Assembly (NCBI GenBank): GCA_944392215.1
Contig: CALXVX010000022.1
Location: 1 to 61,441 of the forward strand
From: an uncultured Alphaproteobacteria bacterium
GTDB lineage: Bacteria > Pseudomonadota > Alphaproteobacteria > RF32 > CAG-239
Direction: 5' to 3'
DNA: 61,441 bases
In this document: positions 6,557-56,481 of the stretch, one piece after another
Layout: each line of letters starts with the position of its first letter
Position numbering within the stretch: the first letter of the stretch is position 1
Made by a program: the position numbers and the translations under genes
The notes under the pieces: generated by a model
Databases searched by the model: none
Seen by the model: only the letters and a program-made list of their open reading frames with translations
What the model was told of the DNA's origin: nothing

Positions 6557-8614
6557 ATGGCAGAAGAAGTTCAAACAGAACAAAACATTAGAGAACCGAT
6601 TGAAGAAGATGCCGTTTCAGCAGGTAGTGTTCCTAGTGTCAATAATAGCAAAGAAAATTCCTTTGACATGACATACTTGGTTAAGGAACGTTTTGAAATA
6701 AACTACAACTCACCTCTTCCGGATTTGGATGTAAACGGAGCAAAAGCCTATGCTGTAAAAGACAAAATAAACCCGCAACGAGAATTGTTTGCCCTTTTAT
6801 GTGACAATAATTTTCCACCCAGGTTATCAATGCTGCCTTACTTAAAATCCATAGAACATCCAAATTTATTAAAATTAATAGAATACAGTGTTGTTGATTA
6901 TATACCAGAAAAAACCATGAATATGGCATTAATTTACAACCGTCCGACAGGTCCAAAAACATCTCAAATACGGATCAAAGAAAAAATCAGTTTTGAAAGA
7001 TTCAAATCCTTGGTTTTATCTCTTATTTCCGGATGTGAAGCTCTTAAAAGCTATAACCTGACACATCGAGCCATCCGCATGGATAACGTTTTCTTTAAGG
7101 ATGAAGACTGCTCTGAACTTGTTTTGGGAGATTGTGCTGCATCTTTTCCGGCACTATATCAACCCAACGTGTATGAAACCTTAGAAAACATTTTGTGCTT
7201 ACCACAAGGCCGCGGCCAAGGAAGCAGTAGCGATGATATTTATGCCGCAGGCGTAACTTTGCTTGGAATTGTTTTAGAACATGAATTACCCTCAAAATAT
7301 TCCGGACCGGAACTACAAAGACTAAAACTAAAAAAAGGCTCCTTATCCGTTTTGCTAAATGGAGAAAAAATTCCCAATCATTTTTTACCCTTGTTTAAAG
7401 GAATGCTGGATGATAATGCAGAAAGTCGTTGGAATAGTTCTCAAATTTATAATTACCTAGAGGGAAAGACTCCAGCCTTTTCAAACGATTCCTCTGACCG
7501 GTCAATGAGAGCGCTGAGTATTGGTGGAGAAAAATACTATACCGCAAAATCTGCAGCTTTAGCCATGCTTGAAAATCCATCTGAAGGCCTATCAATAATT
7601 AAAAATGGAAAACTCTTAGACTGGATAAAAAACGGCCTAGAGAACGAGAAACTACATAACAAAATTGAGCGAGTAATAAATAGCGACAAAGAGCATGAGG
7701 CGAACCGCTTGCTTTTACCGCAAATCTGCATTTACCTTGACTATAGTTTGCCTCTCAAAAGTGATACTATATACATTTTTCCAAGCGGATTACCGAAAGC
7801 AGTTTTTCATTGTTTAAAAACCGGAAGATCCGTTGAGCCTTTTTACCAAATTTTGGCGGGAGACCTGATAAAAATCTGGTATCAAGAACAACCCTATTTA
7901 CACACGCCTGCCAACAGCAATGAGTTCAGAATATATTTGAATCGCAACACCTACGGCTATGGAATTGACAGAATCATCTACGATTTTGATGATGATCTAC
8001 CATGTACCAGTCCGCTAATAGGTAAAGAATTTGTCAACACACCATCAAAGCTTTTAAAAGCACTGGATTCAAATTATTCAGAAAACAAAGAGGAAAAACC
8101 CTACGACAAGAATATCATCGCCTACCTGCGTTGCAAAATGGGCAAAAAAATCGACGGAGTTTTAACAGATATAAATGCAAATCAAGATGCTCTGCAAATA
8201 TCTGCCGTCATGCGTCTTTATGCCAATATTCAAAATAAGAATGGTCCGGTTCAACTTCTAAACTTAACCAAATGGCTGGTAAAAGCAGCCAAACCGATTA
8301 TAATGAGCTACCACAACACAAAGTATCGAAAATTTTTGGAACAAGAAGCCATAAAAATAGCCAAAAGCGGAAAGATTATAGAACTCTACGAAATCCTTGA
8401 AAACGATGAAGCAAAAAAGAAAGATCGAACAGAATACTCCTCCATTCTGAAAAAAGTAAACATTTTAGTCACCGAACGCAACCGAATATTACAAGGAGGA
8501 CCAAAATTAGATGAAGAGTCCAAAGAGCTGGCCATAAAATTTGGCTCAATTCTTTCTATACTAACCATGCTGGGTTCTTTTGTCCTCAGCATAATTTATT
8601 GGGTATTCAAATGA
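6557..8614 (+). CDS. protein-kinase-like (probable pseudokinase) protein with C-terminal TM anchor
   Basis: AYAVKDK (VAIK-like Lys). HRAIRMDN replaces HRDxKxxN, so the catalytic Asp becomes Ala. Also LGDC (DFG-like) and DDIYAAGVTLLGIVL (subdomain IX). About 350 aa of unknown region follows, then a terminal TM helix LSILTMLGSFVLSIIYWVF. Confidence 0.6.
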   Translation: MAEEVQTEQNIREPIEEDAVSAGSVPSVNNSKENSFDMTYLVKERFEINYNSPLPDLDVNGAKAYAVKDKINPQRELFALLCDNNFPPRLSMLPYLKSIEHPNLLKLIEYSVVDYIPEKTMNMALIYNRPTGPKTSQIRIKEKISFERFKSLVLSLISGCEALKSYNLTHRAIRMDNVFFKDEDCSELVLGDCAASFPALYQPNVYETLENILCLPQGRGQGSSSDDIYAAGVTLLGIVLEHELPSKYSGPELQRLKLKKGSLSVLLNGEKIPNHFLPLFKGMLDDNAESRWNSSQIYNYLEGKTPAFSNDSSDRSMRALSIGGEKYYTAKSAALAMLENPSEGLSIIKNGKLLDWIKNGLENEKLHNKIERVINSDKEHEANRLLLPQICIYLDYSLPLKSDTIYIFPSGLPKAVFHCLKTGRSVEPFYQILAGDLIKIWYQEQPYLHTPANSNEFRIYLNRNTYGYGIDRIIYDFDDDLPCTSPLIGKEFVNTPSKLLKALDSNYSENKEEKPYDKNIIAYLRCKMGKKIDGVLTDINANQDALQISAVMRLYANIQNKNGPVQLLNLTKWLVKAAKPIIMSYHNTKYRKFLEQEAIKIAKSGKIIELYEILENDEAKKKDRTEYSSILKKVNILVTERNRILQGGPKLDEESKELAIKFGSILSILTMLGSFVLSIIYWVFK

Positions 8615-9993: not shown

Positions 9994-10145
9994 GTTCGTT
10001 TCACTCCTGTTTAAGCATTCAGTCGTTCAACGTACGAGTTCCGGTCCTAAAAAAATCGACGCTTATAGGGTCGCGCTAAATTAGCAAAAGCGCAACCTAT
10101 CCTTTAGTATGGTAGGTATTGAGATTTTCTATTTTGAGTTGCTGT

Positions 10146-11480: not shown

Positions 11481-12329
11481 ATGGCAGAAGCAGATTCTCA
11501 AGACGAATTTGACAGGCTTTTAGACGACTTCATCTCTCAGCAATTGGCTGATGCGGAAGACAATCTCACGGACCTTGCCGAGCTGAAAGAAAGCGGCAAA
11601 CCGGCTCCTCAATACCCCGAAGATGAGGCCGAAATCATTCAAAACCTCTATAAAGAAGAACGCCAGCTATATGACGCCTACCACAATTTTCGCAACGCGA
11701 TAAATGCTATTGCCAAAAATGCCAACATGGAACCGCCGCATTTTGAATTTGGCGCCAGATATATTTACCCTCGTTTTCGCCCCACCAGAACCAAACAACT
11801 CAACCAAGATATTTTCAGTGGTTGGGAGCTATTAGCCATGGCGCAACCGGTCAGACTGTCATCTCTGCCGGCCAACGCCTCGGATGAGCAAATTTTAAAT
11901 TTTGCCGAAAAAACAACCGATGAGAACTTGCAATGCGCTCTAATTTCTTATGTCGAAATCTTAATAGAGCTGGATGGTTGCGAAATTGCCTACAATATGC
12001 GCAAAGCCAAAGCCGAAAAGCGCAAAATAGAAAAAGAGATTTTTGAGGAACACCAACGCCGCAAAGAGCGAATGAAAAAGTATATTGAAGCCATTGAGGC
12101 TCAGCATTTTCCGATAGATGCGGAAAGGCTGGTCAACAACTTTTTCAAAAGCGTGCGTAAAGATCCCGAAGGCGCACAAAAGATATTGGAAACGAATCCT
12201 GCCACCTTTGCGCCCATTCAGGTAGAAAAGATTCCGCCACGCTTTTTTGGGCTTATAAAAACCAAACCGGAAGATGGAATCAGGGTAAATAAAGAAATCG
12301 GAAAGTTTTTGAAGAACTTGAAGGTCTAA
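11481..12329 (+). CDS. hypothetical protein, acidic N-terminus, Lys-rich C-terminus
   Basis: Long uninterrupted ORF with RBS-like aaggagg 9 nt upstream. No recognisable motif. Confidence 0.5.
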   Translation: MAEADSQDEFDRLLDDFISQQLADAEDNLTDLAELKESGKPAPQYPEDEAEIIQNLYKEERQLYDAYHNFRNAINAIAKNANMEPPHFEFGARYIYPRFRPTRTKQLNQDIFSGWELLAMAQPVRLSSLPANASDEQILNFAEKTTDENLQCALISYVEILIELDGCEIAYNMRKAKAEKRKIEKEIFEEHQRRKERMKKYIEAIEAQHFPIDAERLVNNFFKSVRKDPEGAQKILETNPATFAPIQVEKIPPRFFGLIKTKPEDGIRVNKEIGKFLKNLKV

Positions 12330-12407
12330 ATGGTACAAAAATATAGACAAAATTCAAATTTATGATAAGATATAAATAATATACTTTCACAAAGAAGGGA
12401 ATTAACC

Positions 12408-14060
12408 ATGGCAAAAGAATCCACCTCTCCCCGCAAAGAAGCAGAAACAGCCGCCAGAGGCGGAAGAAAAAGCGGAGAAGAAAACACCAGAAGGACAAGA
12501 ACAGAAGCCAATAGAATCTCTGCTTCTACACCAACATCCGGCGCGGGAAGCACGCCTGCCGGCAGTGGAGAAAGCGGCGCAAGCGGCAGTTCCACCCCGC
12601 AGCAAAATGATGGAAATTCTGGGCAAAAACCCGTCACTGTTAATCAAGCAAATCCCCAACCTGAAAAAGAACCGCAAAACAGTGACGACAAAGAAATCAG
12701 CATAGATGAAAACAAGCCTCTCAACGAATTATCCGTTGAAGAACTGAAAGAACGACAGGAAAAAACAACAGACCCAGAAGAAAGACAAAAATATCAAGAA
12801 CTAATTGATCAAAAAAACAAAGCACCTGAAGCCGGAGAAATCAAGAAAACAGATGACCCCGATACTCCAAAAGAAGACGACGATAAATTTGATATTCAAC
12901 AGGGTGATTTTATCGAGTTTTTAATGAAAGACGTTGTTTTAGCCTCCGCCGCCTGGGCCGGCAAAAAAGTTTCCGGCCAAATTGGGCTTTTGACTTATCG
13001 CGGCCTTTCCTGGATGTATCACACCGCAGATGATAAACTATTTACGCCGGCAGGAAAAGAAATCTCAGAAGCCTGGGATAACTTAAAGAAAAACACCAAA
13101 GAAGCCTTTAGAACAGTAGAACAATACCAAGTAAAAGATACCCTAAACGGCAAAGACGATACCACTGATTTTGCTCACGAGGTAATAAAAGAACACAATA
13201 AAGTTATAGATGAGGCCTTAAAAAGCCCCAAAAGGATTGAAGCTTTTGGTCATTTTGCCGAAGCCGTATTCGGCGGAAATTTTGAGGCAGGAAAATACAC
13301 CCAAAATGGTCATCTTGTTTGGTTTGACAAAGAAACCCGCACCACTATTCCGCTTGAAGGAAAGTCCATAGAAAATATAGTCAAAATGGCTCAAGAAACT
13401 TCTAAAGCCATAGATGCTTCAGACAAAACTCCGGAAGAAAAAGCTTCCCTAAAAGAAACAAGAGCAAAAGAATTGGCAATAATTGTCGGAGATTACACCC
13501 TGCTTGAAAGTCAAAAAAACATCTTCATGTCCAACATGGCAACCGCCACACTTTTGCAAATGAAAGCAGAAAATAAAGATTATAAATACTCAAAAGAAGA
13601 TCTTGAGACGATGAAAAACCGCGCCGCCATAACCTTTTTTACCGAACTGAGAAAAATACGGAATGGCCAAAGCCAATTCAAAACTGTTGAAGAATTCTTA
13701 GAAGCCAGCGGCAAAGCTGTCCAAGCTGCATATAAAAATATAGAAAAAGGTCATTATATTGAAAGAGGTAAAATACCTCTTGCCAATGCAGATTTAGTTC
13801 TGCTCAACAACCTCAACACATCGCAATGCCAAGAAAACCCTCAAGATATGATGACAGAAGCTTTGCAATATAGTGAAACCATGAGGAAACTACAAAAAAG
13901 CTATGAAATTGCAACAGATTCCGCAACCGTTGCTGAAGCGACCCAAAAAGCCCACGAGCAAAACACCAATAGGCCAAAAGACAAAGGCAAAACCAGCGAA
14001 GACAGCAGAAAACAGGAGCCCCCTATCAAACCAAAGTTAAATGAGGGAACTTCTCGATGA
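12408..14060 (+). CDS. hypothetical 550-aa protein with disordered N-terminal third
   Basis: Long ORF. Low-complexity S/G/T/P, then a D/E/K-rich N-terminal region, then a helical body and a basic tail (..RPKDKGKTSEDSRKQEPPIKPKLNEGTSR). No recognisable motif. Confidence 0.55.
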   Translation: MAKESTSPRKEAETAARGGRKSGEENTRRTRTEANRISASTPTSGAGSTPAGSGESGASGSSTPQQNDGNSGQKPVTVNQANPQPEKEPQNSDDKEISIDENKPLNELSVEELKERQEKTTDPEERQKYQELIDQKNKAPEAGEIKKTDDPDTPKEDDDKFDIQQGDFIEFLMKDVVLASAAWAGKKVSGQIGLLTYRGLSWMYHTADDKLFTPAGKEISEAWDNLKKNTKEAFRTVEQYQVKDTLNGKDDTTDFAHEVIKEHNKVIDEALKSPKRIEAFGHFAEAVFGGNFEAGKYTQNGHLVWFDKETRTTIPLEGKSIENIVKMAQETSKAIDASDKTPEEKASLKETRAKELAIIVGDYTLLESQKNIFMSNMATATLLQMKAENKDYKYSKEDLETMKNRAAITFFTELRKIRNGQSQFKTVEEFLEASGKAVQAAYKNIEKGHYIERGKIPLANADLVLLNNLNTSQCQENPQDMMTEALQYSETMRKLQKSYEIATDSATVAEATQKAHEQNTNRPKDKGKTSEDSRKQEPPIKPKLNEGTSR

Positions 14061-14545
14061 AAAAAGTCTACAAAATTTTTAGGTTTACCCTCATCGGTTT
14101 TGTTTGGACCTATCTGTTTTTGGTTTTAACCAACCACATAATGTTCCGGTTGTGGAACTTTAACTTTATGTCATTTCGCAGTTGGAACCTGTTTTTTGGT
14201 TTTTTCCATACAGATTGGGCACTGAAAACAAGAGATGATTACATTTTTTTACTAATGCTTTTTGCTCTGCCTTTCTTATGGATTTTAGGCTGGTTAAAAG
14301 TCTTAAAAATAGACTACTTAAGCATTTTTCTTTATCCAATTAATGCTTATAACCACTACATAATCAATAAATATGGCCACGATTCCTCAAGGATTGTTTT
14401 GAAAAACCTAAAGTCCAGCCAAAAAATGATAGAAGAGATAAAAAGCAAAATAGAATCTATAAGACCAGCCAAAACCAAAGAGGTTAGCAACATTCGAGCA
14501 GAAGTGCAAAAACAATTAGAAAAACTAAATCAATCCAAACACTAA
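14057..14545 (+). CDS. two-TM Trp-rich membrane protein (paralogous N-domain, short form)
   Basis: ATGA overlap with the upstream stop. Its N-terminal about 80 aa align without gaps to the N-terminus of the next gene. Confidence 0.55.
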   Translation: MKKVYKIFRFTLIGFVWTYLFLVLTNHIMFRLWNFNFMSFRSWNLFFGFFHTDWALKTRDDYIFLLMLFALPFLWILGWLKVLKIDYLSIFLYPINAYNHYIINKYGHDSSRIVLKNLKSSQKMIEEIKSKIESIRPAKTKEVSNIRAEVQKQLEKLNQSKH

Positions 14546-14604: not shown

Positions 14605-15855
14605 TTGAAACCGCTTTTAATTTTAATACGAATAGCCCTTGTTGGTGTTTTCTGGAGCATTTTGTTCTTAGAAGGCGTTCGTGTTATTATGCTCACCAAC
14701 TGGCATTTTGATATTTTACGTCTGGACCACTGGCTGTATGCTTGGAATTTATGGCTTTCCGGTTGGGTTATTGATGACCCTAAAGAATGGGCCTTTATCC
14801 TGATAATCTTGACATTTATTCCTGTTTGGCTAACCGGATGGACTGCCTTAAGTCTTATACATTGGGGAAAAATTTTTGCCAATATTTTGATGATCCCGCT
14901 TAAACTTTTCAATAAAATATTTGAAAAACAAGTAAAAAAAATTGCCTCCACAGCCAGCGTCAAAGTTGTAAAAAAGAAAAAATCATACAAAGAGATCAGG
15001 CCTCGCAGCATCCGCCCTCCCCTAGAGGAAAGTGCGTATACCCTGCCAGCCGACAGAAAAGCAGCATTATCCGGTATTGCCCCTAAAAGCGCACCTATTT
15101 CCAAACCGGCAACCAGCATCACCAAAGAAGTTGATGCCCCGGTTGAATTTAGCCACTCACTATTCAAATTCGATGATGACGACAACAGCGGATTTGATTT
15201 TGATTTATTTGACGATTCTCCTAAAGAAGAAACAAAACAAGAAGCTGTTCCGACAAAAGAAACCAAAAAAACGGATTCTAAATCAGCGCCCAAACAACCG
15301 AAAGATGACAGCCGCAACAAAAATAATTTAAAGAGACCTTCACTCCCCCGTGGCAGTACCAACTCCACTTTTGAAGTTCTCAAACAAAAAGGATATGAAG
15401 TTATCACTGGCGCCACCATAAAAAGTACACTTATAGATTTTATAGGTGTTTCCAGCACCCAAATTTGCCTTTGCTTAAATGATAAGGAGCCGGGAGATTG
15501 GCTGGCTGATGAAGAGCGTTTCAACGATGAGGAGCCTTTGTGGTTTTCTGAAAGTTCACACAGAATTTCTCCTGTCAGAAAAATAGATATTGCTCGCTTA
15601 ATTTTAACCGACAAACTAGCCGAAGCAGAGATGTCCTTCAAAGTAGAAGCCTATGTTATTGAGCAAATTGGCAATATAATCAACGCAGAAGACATGTTTG
15701 ATATTTGGGATGATATGAACATTCATGTCACCAGAATTGACAGAGGAACCCCAAAAGAAATAAAATTATTTAATAAAGCCCTGGAAGAAGCCGAAGGTAA
15801 GATTGATAAGGCCGAATTTGACAAAGTTAGAAAACTAATTCGTAGTATTGCATAA
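14605..15855 (+). CDS. two-TM Trp-rich membrane protein with disordered linker and C-terminal globular domain
   Basis: TTG start with GGAGAG 8 nt upstream. The N-domain is paralogous to 14057-14545. K/D/E-rich linker (FKFDDDDNSGFDFDLFDD), then a C-terminal domain of about 170 aa with no recognised family. Confidence 0.55.
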   Translation: MKPLLILIRIALVGVFWSILFLEGVRVIMLTNWHFDILRLDHWLYAWNLWLSGWVIDDPKEWAFILIILTFIPVWLTGWTALSLIHWGKIFANILMIPLKLFNKIFEKQVKKIASTASVKVVKKKKSYKEIRPRSIRPPLEESAYTLPADRKAALSGIAPKSAPISKPATSITKEVDAPVEFSHSLFKFDDDDNSGFDFDLFDDSPKEETKQEAVPTKETKKTDSKSAPKQPKDDSRNKNNLKRPSLPRGSTNSTFEVLKQKGYEVITGATIKSTLIDFIGVSSTQICLCLNDKEPGDWLADEERFNDEEPLWFSESSHRISPVRKIDIARLILTDKLAEAEMSFKVEAYVIEQIGNIINAEDMFDIWDDMNIHVTRIDRGTPKEIKLFNKALEEAEGKIDKAEFDKVRKLIRSIA

Positions 15856-15867
15856 AAAGAGGAATAG

Positions 15868-18126
15868 ATGGCAGTAGAAAAAAAAGGAGAAGAGTGGGAA
15901 GAATATAACAGTGCCGTTCGCTGGATGGTAATAACTGTTATTATATCCACTCTCATAACCATATTTTTAGCGTTGGTTTCAATGCCTTTAGGATATCTTA
16001 TCGGCACAGGTATTTCAAAAGAAAGCTTAGGGGATGTTTCCCGCTTTTTTGACCTTGTTTTCAATAAGCCAGGCTATCTCTACTCTCGTTACTGGAATTG
16101 GATGAAACAACTTTTTAGCTACCACGGTCCTTTTTCAGTGAGCTTATGGGTTCCTATTTTACCTTTTTTCAGTTTTCCGACAGGTTTAATCATCGGAGCA
16201 GTAACCAATCCCTATAGATTTCAATCAAACATTCATGGCTCTGCCCGCCTGGCGACAGAAAAAGATATCAAAAAAATGGAGCTTTTGGGGTTCGATGGTT
16301 TTTGCCAAGTTGTCGGCAAATTCAACAACAAGCTTTTGCTGTTGAAAGAAACGCTTTCCACGCTTTGTTGCGCACCTCCGGGAACCGGTAAAACTGCGGG
16401 AGTTGTTGTCCCCACAATTTTTCATTCACCGACCTTGAGCATTATCGTAAACGACCCCAAGCCGGAATTGTGTTTTCAAACCTCCGGTGCCAGAGCCAAG
16501 GTTGGTCCGGTTTTTATCATCAACTGGGGTATGGAAGATAATCCAGCCGAAGGCATATATTACCCAAGCTGGAATCCTCTTTCTCCCGGTGCGGTACCGG
16601 CGCCTGGACCTTCCAGAGATATGTATGTAGATTCCATGTGCAAGGTTTTAGTAGAAGACCCCAAAGGAGGAGCAGACCCTCACTGGTCCACCACCGGTCG
16701 TGCGGCCCTAACCGGCTTTATCCACTTTATCGTTTCCAAATGTGAAAAAGCGCGAGCCAATGACTACTTTATCGGCCGAGTTTATGAAGGCAAGTTAGAC
16801 GAAGAAGATAAAAAGGTTCTGGAAGGCTACTATTTGGAAATGAATGATCCTGCAGCCGCCAGAGCTCTTCAAAATTTAAGAAACAACACCCTAAACATAG
16901 ACAACTATTTACCCATTGGTACCTGGGCTTTGTTGCCGGAAAAATGGATTGGGCGAGAAGCCTGCATAGCCATGATTTTGGAGTGGATTACAGAGGCACA
17001 AATTAAACAATCTCAGGATATCAAACGCCGTATGGATGAAGGCGACCAAATGGCGGCCATGGCAGACCCCATGAGAGATTTGTTGGAGGAAGCCATTGAA
17101 GAGGCTCGTAAATTTGGCTACACGCAACGCTGTATCGTTGAGTTGAGCCAGTTAAGCTCCATGCCCGACAAAGAAAGAGGTTCTGTTCTTTCAACCGCTT
17201 TTGCAGGCATCAACATCTTCAAAAACTCCGCCGTAGTGGCCCGCACAAGTTTCAGCGATTTAGCTTTCAAAGATTTACGCGGACTAAAAGACCCCATTAC
17301 CGGAGAATTTAAGCCTATTTCCGTTTATCTTTCGGTAAACCAGGTAGATGCCAGAGCTTTGAGTGTAATTTCAGGAACATTCATTGACCTGATGTCCTCT
17401 TATCTGATAGCAAATCCACCAAAATTTAAGAATCCGACCGACGGCCAGATGGGTCCCTACTCCTGCCTATTTGTACTAGACGAGTTTCCGACCATGCCCA
17501 AACTACGAGCCGTTATCGACGGGCCGGCAGTCGGACGTGGCCAAAAAGTATCATACTTGCTGATTGGCCAAGATTTGGGCCAAATATCCGGTAAATATGG
17601 TAAAGATGATCTCGAAACGGTTATCTCCACAACAGCCTGTAAAGTTATCTTGTCCCAAAACAACGAGCAAACAGCCCAACGTTTCTCTAAGATGATTGGC
17701 AACAAGACTGTTCAAACAACATCTTATTCAAAGAACGAAGGTGGATTCGGTAAAGGCGTAAACCCCTTTGCAAAGAATGTAAGCTACCAATTGCAAGGTG
17801 TTTCGGTTATATCTACAACACAACTCTTAAGCTTGCCAATGCTAAAACAAGTTGTCTTGATGCAAAGTTACATCGACAGACCAATCATGGCAGATTCTCC
17901 TCGTTGGTATTTGGATAAAAAGATGAAAGCCCTGCGCAACCTTCCGCCGGCACCAAATGTTCCTGACTGGATTGTTGCTCAAAGAGAAGATATTAACGAT
18001 GATATGTTAGCCAAGCTGGGCATTGATTATGACCCAAACGAAGATTTTGATGATTCCGAATTTGCAGAAGATGAAGAATACGATGAATCTTCCGAGAACA
18101 AGCCGACAGAACAGACATCTCAATAG
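15868..18126 (+). CDS. type IV secretion coupling protein (VirD4/TraG family ATPase)
   Basis: Two N-terminal TM helices, the HGSARLA motif, Walker A CCAPPGTGKTAGVVVPT followed by IIVNDPKPEL, Walker B-like LFVLDEFP, and an acidic C-terminal tail (DFDDSEFAEDEEYDESSE). Confidence 0.85.
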   Translation: MAVEKKGEEWEEYNSAVRWMVITVIISTLITIFLALVSMPLGYLIGTGISKESLGDVSRFFDLVFNKPGYLYSRYWNWMKQLFSYHGPFSVSLWVPILPFFSFPTGLIIGAVTNPYRFQSNIHGSARLATEKDIKKMELLGFDGFCQVVGKFNNKLLLLKETLSTLCCAPPGTGKTAGVVVPTIFHSPTLSIIVNDPKPELCFQTSGARAKVGPVFIINWGMEDNPAEGIYYPSWNPLSPGAVPAPGPSRDMYVDSMCKVLVEDPKGGADPHWSTTGRAALTGFIHFIVSKCEKARANDYFIGRVYEGKLDEEDKKVLEGYYLEMNDPAAARALQNLRNNTLNIDNYLPIGTWALLPEKWIGREACIAMILEWITEAQIKQSQDIKRRMDEGDQMAAMADPMRDLLEEAIEEARKFGYTQRCIVELSQLSSMPDKERGSVLSTAFAGINIFKNSAVVARTSFSDLAFKDLRGLKDPITGEFKPISVYLSVNQVDARALSVISGTFIDLMSSYLIANPPKFKNPTDGQMGPYSCLFVLDEFPTMPKLRAVIDGPAVGRGQKVSYLLIGQDLGQISGKYGKDDLETVISTTACKVILSQNNEQTAQRFSKMIGNKTVQTTSYSKNEGGFGKGVNPFAKNVSYQLQGVSVISTTQLLSLPMLKQVVLMQSYIDRPIMADSPRWYLDKKMKALRNLPPAPNVPDWIVAQREDINDDMLAKLGIDYDPNEDFDDSEFAEDEEYDESSENKPTEQTSQ

Positions 18127-18136
18127 GAACCAAAAG

Positions 18137-18691
18137 ATGTGGGAATGGTCTAAGTCACGAGAGAAGAATACCGACCAAAAATCCTTAAAAAGCCATTTGG
18201 GGAATCTTCTTTTTTCACCTGAAACACCGTCTTCCGCTCCGAAAATTCCATCTCCTGAACAAATGAAAAATTATCTTGTATCGGAGATAAAAAAAGAGAA
18301 CCTTTCTTGCCTAGAGCTAAAAAAATGCGCTTATCATCCACAAACTTGGGATGAAATGACCAACAGTTCAAAACAGTACCTGAAGATAAGAAAAACCTTT
18401 CTCAAACTAATAGGCTATTCCGCACAAGAAGAATGCAAAAAAATTGGTTTCAACAAAGAAGATATAGAATTATTAAAAAACAAAATCTCGCCGGAAAACT
18501 ACAACACACACATAAAAATCCCGCTTGAGTTTGGCGGAAAGTTAGATATGGATAACCTTTGCCTTATAAAAACTCATCCCCTGCATGATCAAATTCATCA
18601 TCTGATAGAAATTCAAATCAGTTGTGGTTTTTTGCAAAAATATAAATTTATTTACATTCCTTGGTTTGAAGGAAAAATCTACCATGATTAA
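18137..18691 (+). CDS. HNH/His-Me-finger nuclease-like protein (candidate toxin)
   Basis: C-terminal THIKIPLEFGGKLDMDNLCLIKTHPLHDQIHH fits H-x3-P-x3-GG-x5-NL-x5-H-x2-H-x3-HH. The start is taken at ATG 18137, 10 nt after the T4CP stop. Confidence 0.6.
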   Translation: MWEWSKSREKNTDQKSLKSHLGNLLFSPETPSSAPKIPSPEQMKNYLVSEIKKENLSCLELKKCAYHPQTWDEMTNSSKQYLKIRKTFLKLIGYSAQEECKKIGFNKEDIELLKNKISPENYNTHIKIPLEFGGKLDMDNLCLIKTHPLHDQIHHLIEIQISCGFLQKYKFIYIPWFEGKIYHD

Positions 18692-19130
18692 TTCTTTGTT
18701 GTCCAAAGCTCAAAACACAAAACATTTTATCAGTTTTTCACCTATGGGGTCAGATTCCATAGAGCAAACAAACCAAGAGCTCATAAGCTCCGGCAACCCG
18801 CCTCTCCCATCGGATTTTTGCGATTTTTTGAGCTTGTGCGACGGAATTTACTATGATGGATTAGAGCTTTTTGGCACCAAAGAACACCCCCGCCCAACCA
18901 AAGAATATATTTTTACCAATATAACAAAAGCTAACAAGCCTTTTTCGGAATATAGCTTCTTCTCACAGAAACTCATCATTGGAAGCATGTCTGAAAACTT
19001 TATTATATACGATTCCAAAAACAAGTTGTTTGCCATCACAGACAGAATAAACCTATGCTCCCAAATAGAATTTTCTTCTTTTGAGGAGTTGTTATCTTAC
19101 CTTCTGCGCCATTGTGAAATAGGGCTTTAA
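18684..19130 (+). CDS. SMI1/KNR4 (SUKH)-family immunity-like protein
   Basis: [27 protein letters not shown] is the typical SUKH core. The ATG overlaps the upstream stop (ATGATTAA). Confidence 0.65.
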
Positions 19131-19309
19131 TCAGAAGACGAATCCTCTTGATCTTCAAGTTGTTTCAAATCTTCTTCATCAATTTCCGTTGCCTCAAAAC
19201 GGTATTTTTCATTAAACCAATTACCAAGATCTATATCGGCACACCTTTTGCTACAAAACGGACGATATTTCATGTCTGTCACTTCTTTTCTACAAATCGG
19301 GCATTTCAT
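19127..19309 (-). CDS. yacG: DNA gyrase inhibitor YacG (zinc finger)
   Basis: MKCPICRK....[16 protein letters not shown]. 60 aa. Confidence 0.85.
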
Positions 19310-21654: not shown

Positions 21655-22104
21655 CTAAGATGTGAGTTTGGCTAGTTCCACCTCCACTCTAAGTTCTATT
21701 TCTGCCATAATTTCTTGCAGTTTTGGGTCGCTCGATTCTGCCTGATGTTCCTTAACCATTCTGGCTGTTTCGATCAAATTATCCTTAGACATATATCCAA
21801 GCAGCAAAGCATCTCTGATTTCTTCAAGTTTTTCCAAAAGAGAATAGCCTCTTTTGATGAGTTTTTTTCTGATTTCCCTTTCTTCTTCGCTACCCACCAT
21901 CTGAGTGGCAAATATGGCATCTGTCACTGATATACCTGATGTTGCACCGACTTGCTGAGATTTTTTACTCATAGTTTCATTAAGATAAGTCGAAAAACTC
22001 TCCCCACCGGACGTTTTTTTTATATTTTTTCCGGCATTAATATCATTAGTCTTGCCAATATCATTGACTTTTATCATGCCACACTCCTCTATTGAAAAGT
22101 CCAA
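21655..22104 (-). CDS. fliX: class II flagellar assembly regulator FliX-like protein
   Basis: C-terminal ...DPKLQEIMAEIELRVEVELAKL and the central LLEKLEEIRDALLLG match my recollection of FliX. The position next to dksA also fits, as in Caulobacter. Confidence 0.6.
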   Translation of the reverse strand: MDFSIEECGMIKVNDIGKTNDINAGKNIKKTSGGESFSTYLNETMSKKSQQVGATSGISVTDAIFATQMVGSEEEREIRKKLIKRGYSLLEKLEEIRDALLLGYMSKDNLIETARMVKEHQAESSDPKLQEIMAEIELRVEVELAKLTS

Positions 22105-22664
22105 ACAATAGTATTATCCCCATCGTCTTTACAACTATCCGCCGCTTTTTCAAGAGTGATGGGCAAAGCATCTTCATCTCCAAATTTTACACCATCAATA
22201 GGCAACTTAAATAGCTTATTATTTATTTTTATTTGAAAAAGATCTGTCCCCTGAGTATTGCTCCAAGTCAATTGGCTCAAATTCATACAAGCGCGCAAAG
22301 AAAGCTGTTTGAACGTTATATCAAAAAATTCATCACCTAAAGAAGATGTCTTAATTTCAACTTCCCCATTAAGTCTATGAACAATTTTTCCATTTACCAA
22401 CATTTGAGAAGGAATGAGCAGGTCTTCTTTAAATTTAGCTGGTGTCATCTTAGAAGAAGATAGTTCAGAAAAATCTCCTTCCAGTCTATATCTGGTTACA
22501 ATATTTTTTTGAATTTCCTGCACTTCTTGGGATACCATATTAAGTCGAAATACCTCAAACATATTTCCGACCAAACCGATAATGGAGATTGTTAAAACCG
22601 TCACAACAGATATAGCGGCGATAGCCTCTACCATTGTTACACCCTTTTGATTTGAATTTATCAT
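22089..22664 (-). CDS. type IV prepilin-like protein
   Basis: The class III signal MINSNQKG|VTMVEAIAAISVV has Glu at +5 after the Gly. A hydrophobic alpha-1 helix follows, and there are two C-terminal Cys residues. It overlaps the fliX start by 16 nt. Confidence 0.65.
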   Translation of the reverse strand: MINSNQKGVTMVEAIAAISVVTVLTISIIGLVGNMFEVFRLNMVSQEVQEIQKNIVTRYRLEGDFSELSSSKMTPAKFKEDLLIPSQMLVNGKIVHRLNGEVEIKTSSLGDEFFDITFKQLSLRACMNLSQLTWSNTQGTDLFQIKINNKLFKLPIDGVKFGDEDALPITLEKAADSCKDDGDNTIVWTFQ

Positions 22665-55548: not shown

Positions 55549-56481
55549 TTATTTGAAAACCCAGCCGAGTTCGCAACCTTGAGCAACACATTCTTGGCAG
55601 TTTTCAGCTTCTCCGAAGTTATAGGTAATTTCGAGTAAAGAATTTCCCCAGTTTTGCTCAGAAAGATATTTACAGGCATCTAAAGGCACGTCAGAATAAA
55701 CAATCATAAACATTTTTGCATACCCCATAACACCGACAACACCTCCAAAAGGATTAACGATTTGCGCCTCTGCGAGCATGTCATCGGGAACAGCATCGGC
55801 TTCCACAACAAACGCAGCAGAAAGCCCATCATAAGAAGCTGAATTTTTAAAAAGTTCGTGAATATTTGCTTGCAACATAGCAATTTGGTCGACAGTCTTG
55901 TTGGCTTTATATTTTTCCATAGCCTTAGAATAGCCAGAAATAAGGGCAATACTCAAGATTGAAGCAACTATAATGCCAAAATATGCAATAAGGAACCATT
56001 TTCCTTGTTTTACATAAGTGGGATCTTCGCTTACAGGCTCTCCAAACTTCGTGTCATCGCTGCTTTTTTTACAAGTAAGATAAAGAAGATAAAAAGAATA
56101 AATTACAGTAGTCATAACGGCAAGGATATAAAGAACAGAGAGCAAAACAACATCTTTTCCGGCATAACCACTCATAGCCGCACAAACAAAAGAAAGAACA
56201 ATAAGGAGAATTGCCCCCCAAAACCACCAAAAACTTCTGCCCACATCATGCAGTCTGCGAGAGGTCAGGGCAAGAGAAGGAAATATAGTTGCCAAACCAT
56301 ACAAGCCGCTCAAGATGGATATTGGGCTCCATAGTGCGGCAAAAATTGATAAGACAAAAGTAACAGCCAAATCAATAAGCTTAAAACCCCAGAAATCATA
56401 ACGCGTTGCACGGCCGGAGAATTTAAAATAATTTTTAAAAGCGCCACCATAAGCGCGCAAGATAGTTTTTGAATTTTCCAT
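55549..56481 (-). CDS. DUF805 membrane domain fused to a type IV pilin-like globular domain
   Basis: N-terminus has GRATRYDFWGF and RRLHDVGRSFWW (DUF805). After the last TM helix, IIVASILSIALISGYSKAMEKYKANKTVDQI resembles a pilin alpha-1 helix. The C-terminal FMIVYSDVPLDACKYLSEQNWGN parallels FDITFKQLSLRACMNLSQLTWSN of ORF 22089-22664. Confidence 0.65.
   Translation of the reverse strand: MENSKTILRAYGGAFKNYFKFSGRATRYDFWGFKLIDLAVTFVLSIFAALWSPISILSGLYGLATIFPSLALTSRRLHDVGRSFWWFWGAILLIVLSFVCAAMSGYAGKDVVLLSVLYILAVMTTVIYSFYLLYLTCKKSSDDTKFGEPVSEDPTYVKQGKWFLIAYFGIIVASILSIALISGYSKAMEKYKANKTVDQIAMLQANIHELFKNSASYDGLSAAFVVEADAVPDDMLAEAQIVNPFGGVVGVMGYAKMFMIVYSDVPLDACKYLSEQNWGNSLLEITYNFGEAENCQECVAQGCELGWVFK

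Follow-up and report, generated by a model that had tools for sequence, protein, structure and literature searches.

An HNH-toxin-derived protein and its SUKH immunity-type partner at the 3' end of a VirD4-like coupling-protein operon in uncultured Alphaproteobacteria

Polymorphic HNH/SUKH cassettes and the pair behind the coupling protein

Cassettes in which an HNH nuclease toxin is paired with a SUKH immunity protein are a classic combination among polymorphic toxins, and they normally occur as mobile, polymorphic weapons carried on type V, VI or VII secretion delivery domains. The pair described here lies within a 61,441-nucleotide stretch (the window) of contig CALXVX010000022.1 from an uncultured alphaproteobacterium (assembly GCA_944392215.1; GTDB lineage RF32, CAG-239). 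Its first open reading frame (ORF), ORF-A (18137-18691, + strand, 184 aa), encodes an HNH-toxin-derived protein of the YhhZ/Hcp-ET1 type without the general-base His, and the second, ORF-B (18684-19130, +, 148 aa), a protein of the SUKH (SMI1/KNR4) superfamily and YrhA family in the position of an immunity gene. Both stand directly 3' of the gene for a type IV coupling protein (T4CP) of the VirD4/TraG type (15868-18126, +, 752 aa). A sequence-only reading had proposed an active DNase toxin, delivered by contact or by a type IV secretion system (T4SS), together with its immunity protein. The analysis below favours, at a probability of about one half, a domesticated HNH-toxin/SUKH-immunity cassette on a chromosomal VirD4-like operon, the pair being a dispensable client of the T4CP, either as cargo or as adaptor. 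New in this locus are the coupling to a T4CP operon with unfamiliar partners, the MW[ED]W motif at the start of ORF-A, which stands in place of any known delivery or recognition domain, a general base lost throughout the clade, and the long vertical persistence.

The closest described system is YhhZ of E. coli K-12, annotated as a "putative endonuclease", which has been assigned, as an Hcp1 polymorphic toxin, to His-Me finger group 32 (PMC5714182). The related Hcp-ET1 effectors are, according to a review, antibacterial type VI secretion system (T6SS) toxins with predicted HNH-DNase activity (PMC6099711). As in the window, the YhhZ/YrhA and Hcp-ET1/ETi1 pairs consist of an HNH domain of ~125 aa and a SUKH/YrhA protein, homologous to ORF-A and ORF-B as a pair, with overlapping genes (yhhZ and yrhA by 4 nt). 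Using hhalign, residues 257-381 of YhhZ were aligned to residues 56-182 of ORF-A (97.3% probability, E 2.5e-11) and E. coli YrhA to ORF-B (91.6%, E 8e-7); by this comparison ORF-A is homologous to the YhhZ/Hcp-ET1-type toxin domain over the whole domain (residues ~56-182). YhhZ keeps the canonical HH dyad and carries, for delivery by the T6SS, an Hcp domain at its N-terminus, whereas ORF-A has the MW[ED]W peptide with a linker, reads H-I at the dyad and is linked to a T4CP.

ORF-A has 37 full-length orthologues. A profile of ORF-A orthologues was searched against 1.84 billion representative proteins and recovered 471 of them at E<=1e-3, with LXG and PAAR toxins at ~1e-11 (hmmsearch). In many of the 471 the domain forms the C-terminal end of a long protein with an LXG, Tox-PAAR-like, PT-HINT, PT-TG or Mu-portal N-terminus, and these long relatives weakly match Pfam HNH (PF01844). 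A ClpV-VgrG-DUF2169 T6SS locus contains one toxin with the ORF-A domain, and a second such toxin, of the LXG type, has a SUKH_5/SMI1_KNR4 gene behind it. The ORF-B profile matches the genes downstream of a T6SS (PAAR-like) toxin, of an LXG toxin and of YhhZ. The LXG toxins of the type VII secretion system (T7SS) and the PAAR-like toxins of the T6SS have both the toxin-domain family and the downstream immunity family in common with ORF-A/ORF-B; unlike ORF-A, they are 570-700 aa long, place the HNH domain after a delivery module, keep HH and occur in T6SS/T7SS contexts. Because the genes downstream of such toxins match the ORF-B profile, and because YhhZ and YrhA both align, ORF-A and ORF-B descend as a unit from a toxin/immunity cassette, and the cassette moved as a unit. 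These comparisons agree with the HNH/His-Me-finger ancestry and the polymorphic-toxin descent proposed earlier, and place the HNH resemblance of ORF-A far beyond chance.

The standard Pfam HNH models, like the rest of Pfam and NCBIfam, match neither ORF-A nor any of 29 orthologues, and PADLOC likewise returns nothing for ORF-A. In a sequence search of the PDB, the sole match to ORF-A was the DNase of pyocin AP41 (4uhp, the closest solved structure by sequence), at a borderline E of 0.09-0.47. The AlphaFold2 (AF2) model of ORF-A is confident (predicted local distance difference test, pLDDT, >90 for residues 40-184) and consists of a helical subdomain followed by a beta-beta-alpha unit (strands 122-126 and 141-145, helix 146-162). 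As modelled, ORF-A thus has the beta-beta-alpha metal finger (residues 118-162; 18488-18622, +) that characterizes the HNH/His-Me superfamily. Foldseek searches of the PDB and BFVD placed mostly HNH domains at the top of both lists, and no solved structure matched the whole-protein fold significantly. The missing Pfam match and Foldseek E values >0.1 are all that would speak for these ORFs not being genes, or for a chance likeness of the motif; dozens of full-length orthologues under purifying selection, confident AF2 models and profile homology at E 1e-11 or better exclude such an explanation.

Both hidden Markov models and fold assign ORF-B to the YrhA family of SUKH proteins, as the sequence-only reading had concluded in more general terms from a 27-residue peptide, which is present at residues 38-64. 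NCBIfam NF038335 (YrhA family) matches ORF-B with 69.7 bits against a cutoff of 55 (E 2.4e-19). Pfam SMI1_KNR4 scores 17.4 with ORF-B, below its gathering threshold of 25.4, and is matched by 10/15 orthologues (best 2.3e-5); six of the 15 match SUKH_5 and five SUKH_6. Of the two families suggested for checking by model searches, SUKH was thereby upheld and HNH, with the standard Pfam models, was not. The AF2 model of ORF-B (pLDDT 91.6) retrieves, by Foldseek, 3d5p, 2prv (YobK), 2icg and 2pag as top matches (TM scores 0.60-0.70, probability 1.0), and the Knr4 core is also matched. No match to ORF-B was obtained by tblastn in 72,556 plasmids.

The arrangement of the genes is as first described: ORF-A starts 10 nt after the T4CP stop codon, and the frames of ORF-A and ORF-B overlap in ATGATTAA, which contains both the ORF-B ATG and the ORF-A stop. 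ORF-B is translationally coupled to ORF-A. Both start codons are fixed by the orthologues, which begin with MWEWS (ORF-A) and MI..LL (ORF-B), and promoter and terminator scans revealed nothing distinctive between the T4CP gene and ORF-A. In the proposed mechanism, the co-translated ORF-B would bind ORF-A as its partner or keeper. At its other end, the ORF-B stop overlaps by 4 nt (19127-19130) that of the convergent yacG (19127-19309, -), and no terminator-like site was found in this short convergent interval.

The altered dyad and the N-terminal peptide of ORF-A

In ColE9-type enzymes the second His of the dyad (His103) serves as general base, supported by Asn118, while the metal is bound by His102, His127 and, with Zn2+, His131. 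ORF-A has the same H...P-x3-GG...N...H-x3-H spacing as colicins E9/E7 and pyocins AP41/S8, and keeps the three metal-binding His. The colicins differ from ORF-A/ORF-B in keeping HH, whose second His is the general base, and in having four-helix Im immunity proteins instead of SUKH ones. The peptide quoted in the sequence-only reading, THIKIPLEFGGKLDMDNLCLIKTHPLHDQIHH, spans residues 124-155 of ORF-A. The protein had been thought to end with this motif; in fact 29 further residues of the same domain follow. The spacing earlier noted as that of HNH nucleases is correct, although the pattern as it was written conceals that the canonical HH reads H-I in ORF-A, with H125 at 18509-18511 (+) and I126 in the general-base position at 18512-18514 (+). 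The dyad region of ORF-A reads NTHIKIPLEFGG...N...HPLHDQIH, where the bona fide toxins have VHHK[LI]P[LI]D[DG]GG...N...PYH. Ungapped alignments, whether among family members or with the DNase of pyocin AP41, pair H125 with the first His of HH and I126 with its second, while the further finger residues N140, H150 and H154 align with N, H and H of the pyocin enzyme.

This substitution is not peculiar to the window. HH is found in 100/148 representative domains, and the 48/148 without it include all the closest relatives of ORF-A. In 65/65 locus orthologues the first His is followed by L, I, M or R, and the second His is absent in every representative of the T4CP-linked clade, the replacing residue being L, I, M, V, Q or R. 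H125, N140, H150 and H154 are invariant in the alignment of 29 orthologues. No candidate for a substitute base is conserved, as position 126 varies and loop position 132 is either F or Y. This pattern marks a general base that has been lost and a metal site that has been kept. The nearest relatives with HH, P0083 and P0084, are on short contigs and their context is uninformative. Another four representative proteins carry two tandem copies of the ORF-A-type HNH domain; the first copy is without the second His and the second has HH in P0098, P0119 and P0153, while the order is reversed in P0155. Such tandem copies could represent an intramolecular pairing of a dead with a live domain.

As the general-base His is missing across the T4CP-linked clade, canonical DNase activity of ORF-A is doubtful, judging from the alignments. 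His-Me fingers that have lost this His, such as Smad MH1 and the nuclease-like domain of Enpp, are inactive binding domains; like ORF-A, they retain the fold and the metal or ligand residues. They are eukaryotic and unrelated to ORF-A in sequence, and DNA binding by ORF-A is putative. With the three metal-binding His and the Asn kept and the general base lost, ORF-A most likely binds without canonical cutting: the HNH finger would bind metal, and probably nucleic acid, without cleaving DNA by the canonical mechanism. Should ORF-A be dead, the locus would offer a clear example, in bacteria, of domestication that turned a toxin-immunity pair into a binding module.

The N-terminus is where polymorphic toxins carry the module that sets their export route. 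An unrecognised N-terminal part of ~130 aa had been put forward as a recruitment module; however, the toxin homology and fold begin at about residue 50, and solely residues 1 to ~50 are lineage-specific. These ~50 residues match nothing in Pfam or NCBIfam, and no recognised trafficking domain precedes the toxin domain. They start with MWEWS (18137-18151, +; MW[ED]W[ST] in relatives), followed by a disordered linker that varies in length and sequence (residues ~6-40; 18152-18256, +). M1, E3, W4 and S5 are invariant in 29 orthologues, and MW[ED]W is kept across linkers of 20-250 aa, the divergent members having linkers of 100-250 aa. The DNA pattern of this motif occurs, in the window and the loci fetched up to then, only at ORF-A starts, except for one internal match in L008. 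The AF2 model has pLDDT <50 for residues 1-32, and the linker corresponds to gap-rich, variable alignment columns with the lowest nucleotide identity to close relatives. By analogy with the export-setting module of polymorphic toxins, the MW[ED]W peptide is inferred to be the foremost candidate for an element that serves docking or recognition. In the proposed mechanism it would replace, on a flexible linker, the usual delivery domain (Hcp, PAAR or LXG), and would tether or present ORF-A to the T4CP module.

The same peptide could be a T4CP signal in the place of a delivery domain if ORF-A were an active effector DNase that the T4CP recognises and a T4SS delivers into competitors, with catalysis by a non-canonical base and with ORF-B as the immunity protein. 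Such an effector is the main rival reading, though less likely. HNH-superfamily DNases delivered by T4SSs do exist, namely TfdA and LtdD of Xanthomonadales, both with a C-terminal XVIPCD, and the X-Tfe/X-Tfi pairs of these bacteria resemble ORF-A in having a domain of the HNH superfamily, a protective gene beside it and a link to VirD4, which is functional in X-Tfe. The homology of the window pair to proven toxin/immunity cassettes and its immediate linkage to the T4CP are consistent with this, as is the immunity gene, always retained and translationally coupled. The X-Tfe proteins, however, are large, are patchily distributed, carry an N-terminal GHH/HNH domain and a C-terminal XVIPCD that binds VirD4, and belong to a complete VirB/VirD4 machine, whereas ORF-A is small and vertically inherited, lacks an XVIPCD and is not accompanied by nearby VirB genes. 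Pfam returned no XVIPCD match in ORF-A at E<=1, although the presence of an XVIPCD model in the library copy is unconfirmed; there is also no room for this domain, since the HNH domain reaches the C-terminus of ORF-A, and no other C-terminal signal is seen. Together with the general-base His absent throughout the T4CP-linked clade, and replaced there by varying residues, this argues against a delivered DNase. Were ORF-A still a toxin, antibacterial effectors linked to a T4SS or T4CP would extend beyond Xanthomonadales, with an N-terminal motif instead of XVIPCD.

Distribution, inheritance and the tie to the coupling protein

Retrieval by means of ORF-A gave 54 loci from GTDB species representatives, and 65 loci were examined in all. 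Nearly all of the 54 are titled as uncultured Alphaproteobacteria or proteobacteria, mostly from gut or rumen (e.g. CAG:495, Ca. Scatocola); L021 is a short contig binned as Lactobacillus sp. The T4CP gene is immediately upstream of ORF-A in 57/65 loci, confirming the physical linkage claimed at first, and ORF-B follows ORF-A in 63/65, the exceptions being one truncated contig and L061, in which a 155-aa ORF at the ORF-B position gives no tblastn match to ORF-B. The spacing between T4CP and pair is ~10-30 nt or the genes overlap, across a T4CP divergence down to 57% identity. In the deepest lineages the block is a minimal one of p416-like gene, T4CP, ORF-A and ORF-B, with other housekeeping flanks and no VirB genes (p416 being the gene 5' of the T4CP gene). 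DNA separates the T4CP gene from the pair in L031 (~3 kb), L037 (~0.5 kb) and L083. One deep lineage (L053 and L061) has an ORF-A with a ~40-aa C-terminal extension past the HNH domain, and an ORF of 126-130 aa directly after ORF-B (L053, 11169-11549, +; L061, 10989-11381, +) with a faint match to the PADLOC "2TM effector" (E 0.004).

Compared to close relatives, the ratio of nonsynonymous to synonymous substitution rates (dN/dS) is 0.07-0.10 for ORF-A and 0.08-0.09 for ORF-B, values like those of flanking housekeeping genes (0.04-0.11); the T4CP has 0.02-0.04. The pair is inherited vertically under purifying selection, as is also seen from its recurrent position next to the T4CP and from its place at the root of the T4CP tree (below). 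An exchange of alleles was considered from an elevated synonymous rate in ORF-A, p162, p416 and p550 and was set aside, the signal mapping to poorly aligned disordered linkers and being left uninterpreted. Neither the strain variability nor the patchiness of polymorphic toxins is found, the pair being orthologous and syntenic across the 54 species representatives. For a T4SS-delivered DNase, such order-wide vertical inheritance with dN/dS of ~0.1 and without cassette polymorphism would be unexpected, as would the lack of any VirB gene across the 61 kb of the window and the relatives' flanks. The initial proposal of an active, T4SS-delivered DNase therefore retains its cassette descent and its T4CP linkage, while general base, XVIPCD, nearby VirB genes and polymorphism all fail to support it.

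Retrieval through ORF-A favours loci that have the pair, and this ascertainment bias was removed by retrieval through the T4CP. By that route p416 was found upstream in 65/65 metagenome loci with enough upstream sequence, and the ORF-A/ORF-B pair downstream in only 20/57; in L081 and L115 the T4CP gene is directly followed by the yacG/rng/maf/dksA neighbourhood. Parsimony on a neighbour-joining tree of 106 T4CPs places the pair at the root, with at least six losses or relocations. A clade of six species (L027, L035, L038, L043, L045 and L047, with ORF-A at 10001, or 2954 in L047) has an intact pair with no T4CP within 10 kb, keeps MWDWS and shows omega values of 0.04-0.16. In L027 the pair has an ABC-F gene on one side and a CxxCxxCC/S11-peptidase/MipZ neighbourhood on the other. 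Given the root placement, the at least six losses or relocations and the unlinked clade under purifying selection, the pair is ancient and selected without being an obligatory subunit of the T4CP module.

These results bear on a further explanation, in which ORF-A and ORF-B work independently of the T4CP, for instance as a toxin-antitoxin-like or regulatory HNH/SUKH heterodimer, the position at its 3' end being a historical accident of insertion. The six-species clade with its intact, selected pair is in line with such independence, as are the many T4CP loci without the pair and the charge of the T4CP tail, which does not covary with the pair. Contrary to this, the pair is immediately 3' of the T4CP gene in the deepest and in most lineages, at T4CP identities down to 57%, the conserved N-terminal peptide on its flexible linker suggests docking to a conserved partner, and even the unlinked clade retains the motif. 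Independence from the T4CP is quite unlikely.

In the favoured reading, of a domesticated cassette, an ancestor of this group of uncultured gut and rumen Alphaproteobacteria would have acquired an HNH domain of the YhhZ/Hcp-ET1 type with its cognate SUKH protein of the YrhA type, placed 3' in a chromosomal VirD4-like T4CP operon and inherited vertically since. Ancestral at the 3' end of the T4CP gene, yet lost or moved at least six times, the pair behaves as a dispensable client, and would act as cargo or adaptor of the T4CP rather than as a standard DNase weapon. Repeated loss of a dispensable pair is likewise what would be seen for cargo genes of an active effector system. Several points weigh against domestication. 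That the SUKH gene is kept universally has its simplest explanation in an ORF-A that still harms the producing cell, in keeping with a live toxin. The loss of the general base, if other His-Me enzymes are a guide, need not mean inactivity, as PacI has a Tyr in the place of this His and the base has been replaced experimentally in another His-Me enzyme. The tie of ORF-A and ORF-B to the T4CP consists of synteny, from which any interaction is inferred, and no covariation is seen between the presence of the pair and the acidic T4CP tail. Finally, the Foldseek matches of the ORF-A model to HNH domains are each non-significant (best E 0.12-0.17). The lineage is seen in many metagenome assemblies from human gut and rumen, has never been cultured, and has kept the cassette for very long under purifying selection.

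The coupling-protein operon and its chromosomal surroundings

The T4CP matches Pfam T4SS-DNA_transf (9e-55), TraG-D_C and TrwB_AAD_bind, and the NCBIfam VirD4/TraG models below their cutoff. Its Walker A and B motifs are intact, G172-T176 and D538-E539 are invariant, and the acidic C-terminal tail has a charge of -17, with no clear difference in tail charge between loci with and without the pair. The search for T4CP homologues was saturated by near-identical orthologues. Its nearest plasmid relatives (34-35% identical) are encoded in virB8-virB9-virB10-virB11-virD4 operons on alphaproteobacterial megaplasmids, and the HNH/SUKH pair is not downstream of them. A role of ORF-A or ORF-B as T4CP adaptor of the Dot/Icm type (DotN, IcmS/W) was considered and rejected, as there were no such PDB matches and the T4CP scores as VirD4/TraG and not as DotL. 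Literature searches on YrhA, on T4CP with HNH and SUKH and on secretion systems of RF32 returned nothing relevant.

Always 5' of the T4CP gene is p416 (14605-15855, +), a membrane-anchored protein of no known family, in which a low-complexity linker joins the N-terminal membrane domain to a very strongly conserved C-terminal domain of ~150 aa, which is nearly invariant (e.g. GDWLADEERFNDEEPLWFSESSHRISPVRK) down to 39% overall identity. It has no match in Pfam, NCBIfam, PDB or PADLOC, nor by tblastn in the 72,556 plasmids, and the PDB sequence searches with the T4CP and p416 gave nothing useful. By eye, the IDF...LxDKE stretch of p416 loosely recalls the PD-(D/E)xK nuclease motif. Three more genes, p282, p550 and p162 (11481-14545, +), are assigned to the operon by synteny in relatives and are without family matches (Pfam, PADLOC and others); together with p416, they are syntenic within the crown group. 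The p162 protein (14057-14545, +) and the N-terminus of p416 (14605-14910, +) are 24% identical over 103 aa (BLASTP E 2e-10), which suggests a duplicated membrane anchor within the operon, the two having paralogous N-terminal domains.

The 61-kb window holds no T4SS gene other than that of the T4CP, and there are no VirB genes in the 10-kb flanks of relatives either. Conceivably, p416, T4CP, ORF-A and ORF-B form a self-contained, undescribed translocation module of gut Alphaproteobacteria, in which p416 would replace the VirB channel and a nuclease-dead, DNA-binding HNH client, chaperoned by the SUKH protein, would dock via MW[ED]W. This is a speculative and rather unlikely reading. If true, it would mean that a toxin-immunity pair has been exapted as the substrate or adaptor of a T4SS-independent coupling protein. 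Whether ORF-A is dead or alive, the locus presents a conserved VirD4-like operon with partners (p416, p162, p550 and p282) that match no known family, and none of the operon genes matches a PADLOC defence model.

The surroundings are those of a core chromosome, the window containing dnaB, rpoH, rluD, yacG, rng, maf, dksA, fliX, rho, mnmE/G, parAB, dnaX and others. Two window proteins have PilS/Bundlin-type (type IVb pilin) domains. One (22089-22664, -) adjoins fliX, only 3 kb away from the T4CP operon, and its synteny is kept in relatives; the other (55549-56481, -) is fused to DUF805. Further upstream, a 685-aa protein (6557-8614, +) has a weak, sub-threshold match to Pfam Pkinase (26.8 bits against a gathering threshold of 31.7) and is followed by an overlapping ORF of 161 aa, both being syntenic upstream of rpoH in relatives.

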